Part shown: in pieces, positions 9,179-13,076 of the stretch
Layout: every line of letters begins with the position of its first letter
How positions within the stretch are numbered: the first letter of the stretch is position 1
DNA from: a virus
Lineage: Duplodnaviria > Heunggongvirae > Uroviricota > Caudoviricetes
Strand: one strand, 5' to 3'
Virus record (IMG/VR): IMGVR_UViG_3300033405_000002
Span: 115,595 to 179,594 of that record
Length of the DNA: 64,000 nucleotides
Position numbers and translations under genes: made by a program
The notes under the pieces: generated by a model
Told to the model about the DNA's origin: nothing
What the model saw: the letters and a program-made list of their open reading frames with translations, nothing else
Databases searched by the model: none

Positions 9179-9252
9179 TGGTAGCCCTAAGGGGAATCGA
9201 ACCCCTGTTATCGGATTGAGAGTCCGGCTTCCTGCCACTAGAAGATAGGGCC
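9179..9252 (-). tRNA. tRNA-Glu(CTC)
   Basis: Cloverleaf, anticodon arm CCGGA-CT-CTC-AA-TCCGA, GGTTCGATT T-loop, encoded CCA. Confidence 0.9.
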
Positions 9253-9642
9253 ATGTTTCAAAGCGTATAGTTCACGACGGCGTGCAAGCCATTTCTCACG
9301 TTTGACCGGATCACTATACATCTTTGCAAATTTTTTCCGTGCTTGCTCGCGGCGATCTATTATTCTTGGTCTCGATCTTCTCGCACCGGAGTTGCATTTT
9401 TTGTGAGAAGCCGCGAGATTCTCCAAATCCCAATACAACGCGGTGCTAACATGCAGCCATGCTTGCTTATGATCCACCGAAAACGTAGCAAGCGTTTCAA
9501 TTCTCTTGCCACAGCGATAACAAGCGTCTTTCCCGGCGTCTTGAAGCAGCTTAAAAAGCCACATTCGAAGCAGCTTTACAGCGGCCGTCCGTCCGTGCAT
9601 ACCCAGTTGTGCGTCTTTCGTCTCTTTCGATCCCATGTACAC
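9238..9642 (-). CDS. HNH endonuclease
   Basis: CYRCG...FSVDHKQAW...DLENLAASHKKCN; stop codon lies inside tRNA-Glu. Confidence 0.8.
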   Translation of the reverse strand: MYMGSKETKDAQLGMHGRTAAVKLLRMWLFKLLQDAGKDACYRCGKRIETLATFSVDHKQAWLHVSTALYWDLENLAASHKKCNSGARRSRPRIIDRREQARKKFAKMYSDPVKREKWLARRRELYALKHGPIF

Positions 9643-9663
9643 TAATACTGGTTAGACGAAATT

Positions 9664-9727
9664 TGGTGGACCTAGAGGGAATTGAACCCCCGACGGGCAA
9701 CGTCCTAGGCCGCTAGACGAACGCGCC
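9664..9727 (-). pseudogene. Chimeric anticodon-less tRNA (Glu/Asp-type 5' half fused to Ala-type 3' half)
   Basis: GGCGCGTTCGTCTAGCGGCCTAGGACGTTGCCC joined to GTCGGGGGTTCAATTCCCTCTAGGTCCACCA; no anticodon loop, acceptor strands do not pair. Confidence 0.7.
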
Positions 9728-9732
9728 AAACT

Positions 9733-9808
9733 TGGTGGACCTTGTCGGGCTCGAACCGACCACCTCGTGCTTGCAAAGCACGCGCTCTCCCAGATGAGCT
9801 AAAGGCCC
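9733..9808 (-). tRNA. tRNA-Ala(TGC)
   Basis: CGTGC-TT-TGC-AA-GCACG; G3:U70; CCA. Confidence 0.95.
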
Positions 9809-9879
9809 GCGTGGTGCTTTCTGTGGCAGTTCGCGCACAGAAGATCAATCCATTCACACCGTACAATTGTTCCATCTAT
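9802..9879 (-). pseudogene. C-terminal remnant of an HNH endonuclease gene
   Basis: Frame reads IDGTIVRCEWIDLLCANCHRKHHAGL*, preceded by in-frame TAG and no start; LLCANCHR is the typical HNH terminal motif. Confidence 0.5.
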
Positions 9880-9881
9880 CT

Positions 9882-9890
9882 ATTATACCA
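9882..9890 (-). promoter_or_regulatory. Putative extended -10 promoter (TGGTATAAT) inside tRNA array
   Basis: Exact TGnTATAAT match in an intergenic spacer. Confidence 0.4.
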
Positions 9891-9895
9891 GAACT

Positions 9896-9970
9896 TGGAG
9901 CGGGAAACGGGATTCGAACCCGCGACAACTTGCTTGGGAAGCAAGGACTCTACCACTGAGCTATTCCCGC
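9896..9970 (-). tRNA. tRNA-Gly(CCC)
   Basis: CTTGC-TT-CCC-AA-GCAAG; CCA. Confidence 0.95.
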
Positions 9971-9976
9971 AAAACT

Positions 9977-10051
9977 TGGAGCGGACAGCGGGATTCGAAC
10001 CCGCGACCCCCGCCTTGGCAAGGCGATGTTCTACCGCTGAACTATGTCCGC
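9977..10051 (-). tRNA. tRNA-Gly(GCC)
   Basis: TCGCC-TT-GCC-AA-GGCGG; CCA. Confidence 0.95.
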
Positions 10052-10066
10052 GTTACTACTTAATAC

Positions 10067-10142
10067 TGGTGCGCCGTGCAGGATTCGAACCTGCGACTCC
10101 GACCGTGTGAAAGTCGTACTCTGGCCTCTGAGTTAACAGCGC
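10067..10142 (-). tRNA. tRNA-Val(CAC)
   Basis: CGACT-TT-CAC-AC-GGTCG; CCA. Confidence 0.92.
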
Positions 10143-10150
10143 AACAAACT

Positions 10151-10207
10151 TGGTGGACGCTATGGGATTTGGCACCCAATTAAGCCGCCTTACCACTACG
10201 GACGCCC
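10151..10207 (-). pseudogene. Degenerate tRNA-like element ending in CCA
   Basis: GGGCGT...GCGTCC-A-CCA with G3:U70, D-loop-like TAGTGGTAAGGCG, altered T arm TGGG-TGCCAAAT-CCCA, no anticodon arm. Confidence 0.55.
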
Positions 10208-10249
10208 ATCTTTACAACAAACTCAGCATAAGCGGCGATAGCTGATTCT

Positions 10250-10327
10250 TGGTAGCGTTGACGGGAGTCGAACCCGCATTGTCCTGATTGAAAGTCAGGT
10301 TTCCTAGACCATTTAGAAGACAACGCC
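10250..10327 (-). tRNA. tRNA-Glu(TTC)
   Basis: CCTGA-CT-TTC-AA-TCAGG; CCA. Confidence 0.95.
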
Positions 10328-10333
10328 ATAACT

Positions 10334-10409
10334 TGGTGCGCCGTGCTGGACTCGAACCAGCGATCTCTGCCTTGTCATGGCAGCGATTTGGCCGCTAATC
10401 TAACAGCGC
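10334..10409 (-). tRNA. tRNA-Val(GAC)
   Basis: CTGCC-AT-GAC-AA-GGCAG; CCA. Confidence 0.93.
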
Positions 10410-10419
10410 ACATCAAACT

Positions 10420-10495
10420 TGGTGGAGCCGAGGGGAGTTGAACCCCTGACCTTCGCAGTGCGAGTGCGACGTTCTCCCAACTGAACTACGACCCC
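10420..10495 (-). tRNA. tRNA-Ala(CGC)
   Basis: TCGCA-CT-CGC-AC-TGCGA; G3:U70; CCA. Confidence 0.95.
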
Positions 10496-10496
10496 A

Positions 10497-10557
10497 TACA
10501 GGGCGGACATCGAACCCGCCGCTGGTGTTGCGTGCTCCCGACATCTGAGCACCTGTA
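10497..10557 (-). ncRNA. Anticodon-less tRNA mimic (acceptor + D arm + T arm, no CCA)
   Basis: TACAG/CTGTA closing stem, GCTC-AGATGTCGG-GAGC D arm, GGCGGG-TTCGATG-TCCGCC T arm, 13 nt unpaired linker replacing the anticodon arm. Confidence 0.55.
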
Positions 10558-10561
10558 AACT

Positions 10562-10637
10562 TGGTGGACCTAGTGAGATTCGAACTCACGACCTTTTCCA
10601 TGCCATGGAAACGCGCTCCCAACTGCGCTATAGGCCC
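10562..10637 (-). tRNA. tRNA-Ala(GGC)
   Basis: TTTCC-AT-GGC-AT-GGAAA; G3:U70; CCA. Confidence 0.93.
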
Positions 10638-10650
10638 ATACTTATAAATC

Positions 10651-10727
10651 TGGTAGCGCACGTGAGATTCGAACTCACATTTCACACGCTGAGAACGTGG
10701 TTGCCTAAACCGTTAGCAGAGTGCGCC
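10651..10727 (-). tRNA. tRNA-Glu(CTC), second copy
   Basis: CCACG-TT-CTC-AG-CGTGT (27-43 mismatch); CCA. Confidence 0.85.
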
Positions 10728-10742
10728 ACTTACTTCTTAATC

Positions 10743-10819
10743 TGGAGCGGGCGGGGGGATTTGAACCCCTCATCCGAAGCTTGGAAGGCTCCTATTCTGC
10801 CAGATTGAACTACGCCCGC
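10743..10819 (-). tRNA. tRNA-Gly(TCC)
   Basis: GGAGC-CT-TCC-AA-GCTTC; CCA. Confidence 0.95.
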
Positions 10820-10828
10820 AAATTTTAG

Positions 10829-11121
10829 TATCAAGCCTGTAGCCGGGATTCTGTCGTGGACGACCATTCGTCTAGGCGCTGCATCGCTGCAACGCTCAAG
10901 CACGCTACCCGCTGATTCATAACGGATCGAGCCGATCCTGTCAGCCTATTTGCGCTTGCACCGCGTAGAGATTGCCCGTTTCACCCGCACTTAAGCGGCT
11001 CGTCTCTGTTGCTCTAATCGTCATCGGCTTTCACCGATGCGTGGGAGTTGCCCACTACGCTGCTCTACGGTGTCCCGAACTTCCTCCCCCGCTTGCGCGG
11101 CGGCGGTCGTCCAGCTTGATA
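10829..11121 (-). ncRNA. rnpB: RNase P RNA (bacterial A-type catalytic domain, P13/P14 absent)
   Basis: P1 TATCAAGCT/GGCTTGATA; P2 GGACGACC/GGTCGTCC; P4 GAGGAAGTTCGGGA with ACAGAATCCCGGCTA and bulged U; AGAGCAACAGAGA and GGGTGAAAC S-domain motifs; GCAAG...CAAATAGG, GGGTAG (L15), GCTTGAG, CTAGACGAATG conserved runs. Confidence 0.92.
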
Positions 11122-11125
11122 CATT

Positions 11126-11202
11126 TGGAGGACTGGGTGGGAGTCGAACCCACTCTCTACTCCTTTGCAGGGAGAGCCTTCCTACCGTTCAGGTTCCAAT
11201 CC
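11126..11202 (-). tRNA. tRNA-Cys(GCA)
   Basis: TCTCC-CT-GCA-AA-GGAGT; U73; CCA. Confidence 0.85.
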
Positions 11203-11289
11203 AAACTCAACGCACGACCCCTGTTACAAAAAAGCGCGGGATCGGCGAATGCTGTTGTGCGCTACGCTCATACACACAACAATCTATCT

Positions 11290-11364
11290 TGGCGGTGACG
11301 ACGAGATTTGAACTCGCATCCTGCCCCGTGACAGGGGGAAACTCTACCATTAAGCTACGTCACC
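11290..11364 (-). tRNA. tRNA-Asp(GTC)
   Basis: TCCCC-CT-GTC-AC-GGGGC; G73; CCA. Confidence 0.9.
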
Positions 11365-11370
11365 AAAACT

Positions 11371-11448
11371 TGGCGGGGTGTACGGGACTTGAACCCGTGA
11401 TCTCTTCCGTGACAGGGAAGCGTGAACTCCAGACTTCACCAACACCCC
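11371..11448 (-). tRNA. tRNA-Asp(GTC), second copy
   Basis: CTTCC-CT-GTC-AC-GGAAG; G73; CCA. Confidence 0.93.
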
Positions 11449-11451
11449 AAC

Positions 11452-11526
11452 TGGAAGCCGGGACGGGGATCGAACCCGCGAATAATGGTTTTGCAGACCA
11501 TCGCCTTACCACTTGGCTACCCGGCT
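11452..11526 (-). tRNA. tRNA-Cys(GCA), second copy
   Basis: ATGGT-CT-GCA-AA-ACCAT; U73; CCA. Confidence 0.92.
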
Positions 11527-11536
11527 TACATCGAAA

Positions 11537-11640
11537 TTTAGCCCGGATGCTCAAAGAGCCTGACGCTCTAACACCGTGCCCTATGGCTCGTAAGCCCTAT
11601 GGCATCGGCTGCTCTCGCCGTCCGGGACGGCACACCTAAA
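11537..11640 (-). ncRNA. Unassigned structured RNA candidate within tRNA array
   Basis: Closing stems TTTAG/CTAAA and CCCGGA/TCCGGG enclose three hairpins, one built from a 10 nt direct repeat (GCCCTATGGC at 11578 and 11594). Confidence 0.4.
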
Positions 11641-11641
11641 C

Positions 11642-11716
11642 TGGTGGACACAGGGAGATTCGAACTCCATCCTTCTCATTGCAAGTGAGACGCATTCCCA
11701 ATTATGCTACTGGCCC
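11642..11716 (-). tRNA. tRNA-Ala(TGC), atypical second copy
   Basis: TCTCA-CT-TGC-AA-TGAGA; acceptor stem needs a bulge or has two mismatches; CCA. Confidence 0.75.
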
Positions 11717-11718
11717 AT

Positions 11719-11797
11719 TGGTAGTCTGGGTGGGACTCGAACCCACGGTAATCGCTGTTTGTAAGACAGCGGGCATCGCCACTCGCTCCACCAGACC
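11719..11797 (-). tRNA. tRNA-Val(TAC)
   Basis: GCTGT-CT-TAC-AA-ACAGC; GGTCTGG/CCAGACT acceptor; CCA. Confidence 0.88.
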
Positions 11798-11808
11798 ACA
11801 TTTACCGC

Positions 11809-11841
11809 AAAAACAAAAAGGACGCTCGATTTGAGCGTCCT
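11809..11841 (-). terminator. Intrinsic terminator (attenuator hairpin) immediately upstream of first tRNA
   Basis: AGGACGCTC-AAATC-GAGCGTCCT 9 bp stem followed by TTTTGTTTTT. Confidence 0.85.
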
Positions 11842-11888
11842 CGTGATTCGAACTTGTCAGGTCTTAGCCGACTCGAATCTCCGAGGAC
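11837..11888 (-). promoter_or_regulatory. Antiterminator helix overlapping the terminator 5' arm
   Basis: GTCCTCG-GA-GATTCGA (11888-11873) pairs with TCGAATC-A-CGAGGAC (11851-11837), 14 bp. Confidence 0.75.
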
Positions 11889-11989
11889 ATGGTATCTCCT
11901 GCCGCCGCGCAAGCGGCGACCGTACCACGTTCACACACGACTGCTACAGTCGCGGCGGAAACATTCGTGTTGGCGTAAGTGTTGTTCAT
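11864..11989 (-). CDS. Putative attenuator leader peptide (41 aa) MNNTYANTNVSAATVAVVCERGTVAACAAAGDTMSSEIRVG
   Basis: Hand-translated ATG 11989 to TAA 11864; 23/41 codons are Ala/Val/Gly/Glu/Asp/Cys; stop lies 22 nt before the terminator. Confidence 0.75.
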   Translation of the reverse strand: MNNTYANTNVSAATVAVVCERGTVAACAAAGDTMSSEIRVG

Positions 11990-12312: not shown

Positions 12313-13026
12313 CTAATCCGCTGTCACATCCAGTATACGGGACTGCTGGCAGATTTGGCTAGGAATTCTGGAATTTTTTTCCACCTGCTCTATCAACAAC
12401 TTACGCGCTCTCAGGAGCCGGGACTTTACTGCGGACAGCCGGACCTTCTTCCCGGCACTCAGGTTGAGCACTTGCCGAATATCTTCCACGGTCAAGCCTT
12501 CCCAGAAGCGAAGGTGCAGGATGTCGCGGTACGGCGCTGGCATCCGTTTGATCGCCATGTCAAGGACTTGACGATCCGCTAGTCCTTCCAGATCGAGGTC
12601 GCGGAGAGACAACCGTTCAACCAGCTTCGCCGGGACTTTATTGTGTTCAGGGCCAGTGCCATGCGTCCCTGTGGAAACCATCAGGCTGTCGAGTGAAACT
12701 TCGTTGGCGCGGCGCAGCGCGTTGCCGTGGCGTTTCTGCATCAGAGCTTCGTTGATTGCGATTCGCGTTACCCACGTGCTGAACTTGGACTTCTCATCGA
12801 AAGACGGCAGCTTTTCCCAAACCTTCGTCAGAGCGAGATTCGCTGTCCACTGTGACAGGTCTTCACATTGCAGAAATCGGTTGATGACGGCACAGACTCG
12901 CGCATAGTGGTGGTTGTAGAGCGCCGTGAACGCGGCTTCACTACCAGCCTTCGCTTGGCGCACCAGTTGAAGTTCTTCCGGGGAATCGTAAATTTTCTTC
13001 GCTCTTGCTGCGGCAACTGATGCCAT
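12313..13026 (-). CDS. ECF-type (sigma-70 family group 4) RNA polymerase sigma factor
   Basis: Region 2 AKAGSEAAFTALY...KVWEKLPSFDEKSKFSTWVTRIAINEAL; region 4 ILHLRFWEGLTVEDI...VKSRLLRARK; AGGAG upstream of ATG 13026. Confidence 0.9.
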   Translation of the reverse strand: MASVAAARAKKIYDSPEELQLVRQAKAGSEAAFTALYNHHYARVCAVINRFLQCEDLSQWTANLALTKVWEKLPSFDEKSKFSTWVTRIAINEALMQKRHGNALRRANEVSLDSLMVSTGTHGTGPEHNKVPAKLVERLSLRDLDLEGLADRQVLDMAIKRMPAPYRDILHLRFWEGLTVEDIRQVLNLSAGKKVRLSAVKSRLLRARKLLIEQVEKNSRIPSQICQQSRILDVTAD

Positions 13027-13076
13027 TCGGTCGTCTCCTATCAAGAACCAGTATACAAAGCCAGATGAATTTTTGG

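Follow-up and report, generated by a model that had tools for sequence, protein, structure and literature searches.

RNase P RNA is the ribozyme that trims tRNA precursors; its gene is normally strictly cellular, and it has been treated as a hallmark of cellular life. The RNase P RNA of Escherichia coli is 377 nt long, the GGU of L15 in type-A RNase P pairs with the 3′ CCA of pre-tRNA, pre-tmRNA is an RNase P substrate too, and bacterial RNase P RNA without its protein requires unphysiological salt. A 2016 review listed RNase P in the three cellular domains only (PMC4919922). Megaphages have been described whose Rfam matches are limited to tRNAs and a tmRNA, and this profile was taken, for a 0.5-Mb circular sequence, to indicate that it was no ordinary cellular genome (PMC8172020). 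Our literature search turned up no account of an RNase P RNA encoded by a virus, and a phage-only lineage of such RNAs, like the one characterized below, was likewise not found described.

Phage nature of the source record

The window (the whole 64,000-nt stretch of DNA analyzed) corresponded to positions 115595–179594 of a 332,300-bp IMG/VR virus record (G000) from an uncultivated virus in peat, which displayed a CheckV completeness of 100% and had no terminal repeats. The record was a jumbo phage: a family scan of 59 ORFs outside the window recognized a major head protein (phrog_2522, 7e-43), clamp loaders, and a UvsX-like recombinase, and the ORFs of the window itself had matches to tail-fibre, lytic-tail, DnaB-like helicase, and sigma-factor-like genes. 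The Pfam models Terminase_6N and Terminase_6C had no match in the record, and thus phage identity rests on the other hallmark genes; many large ORFs of the record were without family match. The initial annotation had taken the ribozyme gene to be encoded by a phage, and this is upheld by the hallmark genes, the CheckV completeness, and a search of the record for 16S rRNA that found none; its counter-possibility, a bacterial chromosome segment, was not borne out.

The phage further encoded, outside the window, a set of RNA maturation and repair proteins composed of a tRNA nucleotidyltransferase (CCA-adding), PNKP, Rnl1-type and Rnl2-type RNA ligases, and a TROVE/Ro60-like protein. A 5-hmdU DNA kinase was also encoded outside the window, which suggests hypermodified thymidine in the phage DNA.

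Architecture of the RNase P RNA

An Rfam scan of the whole 332-kb record gave a single match to RF00010 (RNaseP_bact_a), namely, the window gene of 299 nt at 11122..10824 on the minus strand (189.3 bits, E 1.2e-59; gathering score 100 bits). The match covered the full model (positions 1–367), and the gene, ending in a 3′ tail UAAA, encoded an intact bacterial class-A RNase P RNA from end to end. An RNase P RNA had been proposed at 10829–11121 before any covariance model was applied: the identification held in the RF00010 check, and the coordinates proved nearly exact, but they missed the outermost P1 pair (G1 at 11122 with 10828) and came without a strand.

The RF00010 alignment and the RNA-defined helices gave the following order of elements: (i) P1 of 11 bp, P2 of 7 bp, and a short P3 with a GCAA loop in the 5′ part; (ii) J3/4, P4, P5, P7, P8, P9 with a GAAA loop, P10/11, and P12 after P3; and (iii) P15, P16, P17, and P18 with a GCGA loop in the 3′ part. 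L3, L9, and L18 were all GNRA tetraloops, and P3 contained a G·G mismatch, which is counted against a functional reading. P12 was a minimal 4-bp hairpin (CCGC–UUAAGU–GCGG; 10985..10998, minus strand) that ran directly into GGGUGAAACGGGCAAUCUC, and P13/P14 were therefore missing, leaving 43 model positions unfilled in the RF00010 alignment; this absence does not disqualify the RNA from class A, since RNase P RNAs of cellular Burkholderiales as a rule lack P13/P14 as well. All the elements listed in the initial annotation (P1–P9, the 4-bp P12, P15–P18, and L15 GGU, with no P13/P14) were recovered from the RF00010 and homologue alignments.

The sites for folding and substrate contact were also in place. 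The L17 strand of the P6 pseudoknot, GCUC (10929..10932, minus strand), paired with GAGC at 11062–11065, and the L15 GGU lay at 10907..10909 (minus strand) with CGGGUAG/GGGUA conserved in the RF00010 alignment. The same alignment contained J11/12 CAACAGAGACGAG (ACAGAGA) and GCAAUCUC as elements of the T-loop recognition site, which we take to be composed of the J11/12 ACAGAGA plus the A–A bulge in P10/11.

The P4 helix variant

The J3/4 plus P4 5′ strand (GAGGAAGUUCGGGA; 11073..11086, minus strand) and the P4 3′ strand (UCCCGGCU; 10841..10848, minus strand, inside the conserved ACAGAA...GGCU block) were both gap-free relative to the RF00010 model, and RNA positions 42–50 paired with 275–282 to form 8 bp with one U bulged. 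The initial annotation had read this helix as a variant one A shorter than usual with a U–G pair; its J3/4–P4 letters were as quoted and the U–G pair was present, but there was no net one-base deletion, and the variant was instead composed of four compensated pair changes that kept the canonical geometry. The pairs, in the numbering of E. coli M1 RNA, were A66–U360, G67–C359, and U68·G358, followed by the bulged U69 and then by C70–G357, G71–C356, G72–C355, G73–C354, and A74–U353, as in the canonical helix, where a bulged U separates 3 bp from 5 bp. Compared to E. coli P4, the phage pairs G67–C359, U68·G358, G71–C356, and A74–U353 replaced A–U, G–C, C–G, and G–C, respectively.

Pair 67–359 was variable among cellular relatives too. 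Among the cellular matches listed, pair 68–358 was G–C in 105/105 relatives and pair 71–356 was C–G in 104/105, while the phage copies (see below) had U·G at 68–358 in 9 of 15 and G–C at 71–356 in 13 of 15. U68·G358 and G71–C356 were found in phage copies only when the 15 phage RNAs and the 105 cellular RNAs (the latter among the matches listed) were taken together; these departures from near-invariant cellular pairs count against a functional reading.

The tRNA array around the ribozyme

Seventeen tRNA genes in one orientation, serving Val, Ala, Asp, Glu, Gly, and Cys, formed an array around the ribozyme gene (9179..11797, minus strand); 16 of them were called by ARAGORN and one by Rfam only. 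The latter, a second tRNA-Cys(GCA) (11126..11202 including CCA, minus strand; Rfam tRNA 48 bits at 11202–11129), ended its CCA at 11126, 3 nt (AAU) before the ribozyme G1. On the other side, tRNA-Gly(UCC) (10743..10819, minus strand) began 8 nt past the last P1 pair (10828), and thus RNase P cleavage there would create the 3′ end of the ribozyme. CCA was encoded by 16 of the 17 tRNA genes of the array, a match to the L15 GGU. Intra-array gaps of 87 and 119 nt could hold signals breaking co-transcription and were counted against it, and a sigma-70 promoter scan around the array gave no more sites than shuffled sequence did.

Metatranscriptome signal from two runs was considered for 10600–11400 and rejected: the contigs covered only 10944–11025, the universally conserved core, at 90–95% likeness, and their loose ends differed from the window, which assigns them to RNase P RNAs of other organisms and not to this gene.

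A 480-nt gap of the array (window 9253–9732, minus strand) started with a tRNA-like fragment ending in CCA, followed by an ORF whose HNH-type Cys/His pattern makes it look like a homing endonuclease inserted among the tRNAs.

The whole record carried 49 tRNAs plus a permuted tmRNA according to ARAGORN, the tmRNA being matched by Rfam as well. The ~50 tRNA genes were distributed over three record blocks (71.7–85.8, 124.8–127.4, and 191.5–197.7 kb) sorted by codon family (Phe/Met/Pro/Leu/Tyr; Val/Ala/Asp/Glu/Gly/Cys; Gln/Lys/Ile/Thr), with many isoacceptors duplicated. The two-piece tmRNA (record G000 187543–187893, L040 9575–9802) had the tag ANAPKAMAAHA in ARAGORN and matched RF04321 at 69.6 bits; it was tried as a clue to the host and discarded, since Rfam has a single permuted-tmRNA family and the match gives no clade. 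Two CUA-anticodon tRNAs (amber suppressors) lay outside the window (record G000 192202–192488, L040 14202–14488), and TAG ended 34 of 204 long ORFs in the record, so that whole-genome recoding was not obvious.

Phage relatives, synteny, and covariation

The exact 16-mer of the P4 variant was present at 31 IMG/VR loci, of which 29 were rejected as chance matches and only two were true RNase P RNAs: L013 (103-kb contig, 165 bits against RF00010) and L030 (224-kb contig, 139 bits). Both RNAs sat between Cys/Asp tRNAs and tRNA-Gly(UCC) as in the window, and both kept the tight junction between ribozyme and tRNA-Gly(UCC); the two contigs came from other samples than the window, and this synteny thus rules out a chimeric assembly. 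The P12–P11 junction pattern identified 15 further IMG/VR loci, all among tRNAs and with full-length RF00010 scores of 141–208 bits, giving a total of 17 other IMG/VR contigs (42–463 kb) with a homologue inside tRNA clusters. Removal of duplicates left 15 phage sequences that were 60–76% identical to the window RNA. One contig spanned the ribozyme region without differences in two peat runs, and these runs may be the source sample. Distant-mode blastn against 50,697 phage records found only the Salmonella chromosomal rnpB filed there, and the 3.5-kb array matched other phage records at tRNAs only.

Canonical pairing and double-sided change per pair were counted across the 15 non-redundant phage RNAs. 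Pairing was canonical at 100% in P4 (120/120 cells, with double-sided change in 5/8 pairs), P7 (4/5 pairs), and P10/11 (2/6 pairs); at 98% in P5 (2/4), 97% in P16 (4/5), 96% in P8 (4/5), and 95% in both P6 (3/4) and P15 (3/4); at 93% in P12 (2/4) and P18 (8/8) and 90% in P9 (6/8); and at 89% in P1 (9/11), 88% in P2 (2/7), 84% in P17 (4/5), and 75% in P3 (4/7). Helix covariation of this kind over the 15 phage copies indicates that the RNA is under selection for its fold.

A module composed of GUGUGCUUGGAAGCG, a hairpin, and UCCCAACCAAGUCC was carried by 6 of the 15 phage RNAs and by none of the 105 cellular RNAs among the matches listed, and it was absent from the window RNA. It was inserted at the P3 tip in L013 (about 3800–3760, inside the RNase P RNA) and L030 and at the P9 tip in L058, L055, L067, and L073; a portable module for tertiary contacts and a small mobile insert are both possible readings of it.

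Origin of the phage lineage

A junction pattern search of 185,579 species genomes yielded at least 120 loci, nearly all in Burkholderiales (matched genera and families included Polaromonas, Variovorax, Hydrogenophaga, Rhodoferax, Rubrivivax, Comamonadaceae, and Sutterella), and an RNase P RNA lay at the match in 119 of the at least 120 cellular loci. The Burkholderiales RNAs and the window RNA shared the missing P13/P14, the 4-bp P12, the P12-to-P11 junction GGGUGAAACGNGCAAUCUC, and J11/12 CAACAGAGACGAG (identical in 99/105 copies among the matches listed), but they differed in length and setting: (i) the 105 Burkholderiales copies compared, among the matches listed, had a median of 342 nt (range 301–471), and the 299-nt window RNA was shorter than every one of them, mainly on account of its minimal P3; and (ii) the Burkholderiales copies lay outside tRNA clusters (at least three tRNAs within 1.5 kb at 0/119 loci, among the matches listed), while the window RNA lay inside one.

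The term streamlined, used at the outset for this RNA, accordingly suits its length relative to the 105 cellular relatives among the matches listed but not its P12/P13/P14 features, which are normal in Burkholderiales; since the same form is normal in those cellular RNAs, the lack of P13/P14 and the minimal P12 were probably inherited and not a product of phage streamlining. A Burkholderiales rnpB lacking P13/P14 is the most likely donor type, and the phage lineage probably derived from an rnpB of this type.

The window RNA had 70–76% identity to the nine phage copies nearest to it, and its identity to cellular copies among the matches listed did not exceed 69%. A quick maximum-likelihood tree, for which the phage and cellular sets were both retrieved with one sequence pattern and which does not set the branching point among all bacteria, needed only two label changes for the 15 phage rows; the tree with the phage copies held as one clade had a better likelihood than the free search and was not rejected (AU test p 0.905). 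On this tree evidence, the phage copies form one lineage. Two sequences, L103 (Rickettsiales MAG contig, 19 kb) and L105 (Alphaproteobacteria MAG contig, 122 kb), nested in the phage clade beside L072 on long branches, for which either mis-binning of phage contigs or a long-branch artefact may account.

A predicted leader-peptide attenuator upstream of the array

Three elements were recognized ahead of the array on the minus strand: (i) a leader ORF of 41 codons plus TAA with an MN start (11864..11989), rich in Val, Ala, Gly, Asp, Glu, and Cys codons and conserved in frame in six phages; (ii) region 2 (UGUCCUCGG, about 11889–11881), conserved, lying inside the leader ORF and able to pair with the terminator 5′ arm; and (iii) a terminator hairpin with a 10-bp stem plus U-run (11818..11842), 20 nt before the first tRNA, Val-UAC. 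The window leader had 21 GNN plus 2 Cys codons, i.e., 23/41, against a genome background of 36%.

The leader–terminator element was also found upstream of tRNA-Val(UAC) in L013 (4778–4930), L030 (6497–6650), L073 (2160–2306), L070/L059 (5553–5706 in L070), and L049 (2424–2570), making six phages with the window. The six leader ORFs had 35–48 codons, kept their frame across a 3-nt indel, and placed TAA in the same alignment column; the predicted peptides began with MN and had many V, A, G, D, E, and C residues, which are the amino acids served by the array. The distance from leader stop to terminator stem was 23–26 nt, the region 2/terminator 5′ arm duplex had −13.8 kcal/mol in the window and −16.5 to −20.6 kcal/mol in the relatives, and the terminator was conserved with two compensatory pairs in a consensus fold that also paired region 1 with region 2. 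The RNase P RNA followed 0.7–1.5 kb downstream of the leader, on the same strand, in each of the six phages.

That an attenuator lies upstream of the ribozyme had been supposed in the initial annotation, and it is strengthened by the conservation, in six phages and on the same strand, of the predicted leader ORF, terminator, and antiterminator pairing; a trp-type leader-peptide attenuator logic upstream of the array thereby gains sequence-level support. The leader as the head of the array was rejected: tRNAs lay upstream of the element in L013 and L030, which ties it to tRNA-Val(UAC) and the genes downstream and not to the array start. If real, the attenuator would be a new way to regulate tRNA genes, for which attenuator control would be unusual.

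A sigma-factor-like gene (phrog_1740, 3e-13; window 12313–13044, minus strand) was located directly upstream of the leader and array, and a homologue of 31% identity was located near the array in L055.

Proposed function and alternative readings

We hold with good confidence that the locus encodes a functional RNase P catalytic RNA of the phage, which would be transcribed within the co-oriented operon of 17 tRNA genes, released by tRNA processing, combined with host RnpA, and gated by the attenuator. Its 5′ end would be released by 3′ processing of tRNA-Cys, 3 nt upstream, and its 3′ end by RNase P cleavage at tRNA-Gly(UCC), 8 nt downstream. The likely role would be to keep RNase P capacity up, or to increase it, during expression of the ~50 phage tRNAs and the tmRNA, and the leader-peptide attenuator would probably gate the block according to how much charged tRNA is available for Val, Ala, Gly, Asp, Glu, and Cys.

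A tentative extension, which we put forward as a possibility and with some doubt, makes the block a self-regulating tRNA factory: when charged tRNAs for Val, Ala, Gly, Asp, Glu, or Cys run short, the attenuator would sense this and permit read-through, the read-through would produce precisely the tRNAs in short supply and, along with them, the RNase P RNA, which would mature them and free its own 3′ end, and the phage-only P4 changes would adapt the catalytic helix, where U68·G358 and G71–C356 might alter metal binding or protein-cofactor dependence.

The partner protein is the point at which other readings enter. The initial annotation had noted no rnpA in the window, and this was extended by six-frame PF00825 searches of the whole record (E ≤ 1) and of five other large phage records with an RNase P RNA (E ≤ 0.1; three of the five at least 99% complete), neither of which gave a match, with PF00825 controls matched in 10 bacterial genomes. 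Since the searches of the phage gave no gene for an RNase P protein, host RnpA is the most likely partner with which the phage RNA would assemble; RnpA proteins are exchangeable between bacterial species (PMC4919922), and compatibility with the host RnpA is an assumption.

The lack of a PF00825 match in six large phage records would equally suit a ribozyme that works without host RnpA, either through an unrecognised phage protein cofactor or by being independent of protein in vivo, so that the RNase P of the phage is insulated from the host; the many large ORFs without family match leave room for such a cofactor, and the phage-only P4 changes together with the phage-only module inserted in relatives point to a lineage that evolved independently. 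We nevertheless judge this reading unlikely, because the RnpA-contact regions (J18/2 CCUAGA..GAAUG, P2/P3, and P15) still follow the bacterial consensus, RnpA proteins can replace one another between bacteria, and the salt needed by bacterial RNase P RNA alone is unphysiological.

A decoy or competitor, titrating host RnpA or competing with host RNase P RNA and thereby lowering host tRNA maturation or diverting processing to phage transcripts, would have to draw on the host protein pool given the lack of an rnpA match, and the phage does supply its own tRNAs, CCA-adding enzyme, and tmRNA; however, the protein-binding part alone would suffice for a decoy, while the catalytic core, T-loop site, L15 CCA site, and P6/P4 were all kept by compensatory change over 15 diverged copies, and we regard this reading as very unlikely. 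Least probable of all is a recently captured, neutral or decaying host rnpB, or bacterial DNA joined by misassembly or flanking a prophage: the absence of P13/P14, the minimal P12, and the J11/12 sequence are indeed those of the cellular Burkholderiales form and the record has no terminal repeats, but the gene has phage genes to either side, at a depth of 11 kb in the window and 126 kb in the 332-kb record, keeps its synteny in contigs of other samples, is closer to its nine nearest phage copies (70–76% identity) than to any cellular copy among the matches listed (at most 69%), belongs to a single phage lineage, shows covariation that speaks for continued selection on structure, and sits in a record in which no 16S rRNA was found.

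Read as a functional phage ribozyme, the conserved phage-only lineage would add the core of tRNA 5′ maturation to the translation functions of large phages (tRNAs, tmRNA, and CCA-adding enzyme). It would also offer natural compact RNase P variants (299 nt, no P13/P14, and altered P4) for structure–function work, and it calls for caution where rnpB serves as a cellular marker in metagenome binning.

Comparison with known systems

With bacterial type-A RNase P RNA (RF00010; E. coli M1 RNA, rnpB), the window RNA shared P1–P12, P15–P18, the P4 and P6 pseudoknots, the L15 GGU, the T-loop site in J11/12, and GNRA loops at L9 and L18. Compared to bacterial type-A RNA, the window RNA was viral, was placed between tRNA genes with spacers of 3 nt and 8 nt, came without an rnpA match in its genome, and lacked P13/P14, its length being 299 nt against the 377 nt of E. 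coli.

The predicted phage leader–terminator element and the trpL/hisL/leuL attenuators shared a short codon-enriched ORF, a stop near a Rho-independent terminator, and mutually exclusive antiterminator/terminator pairings, but they would differ in three respects: (i) the phage element would control tRNA genes plus a ribozyme, instead of biosynthetic enzymes; (ii) it would respond simultaneously to six amino acids; and (iii) it would be phage-borne.
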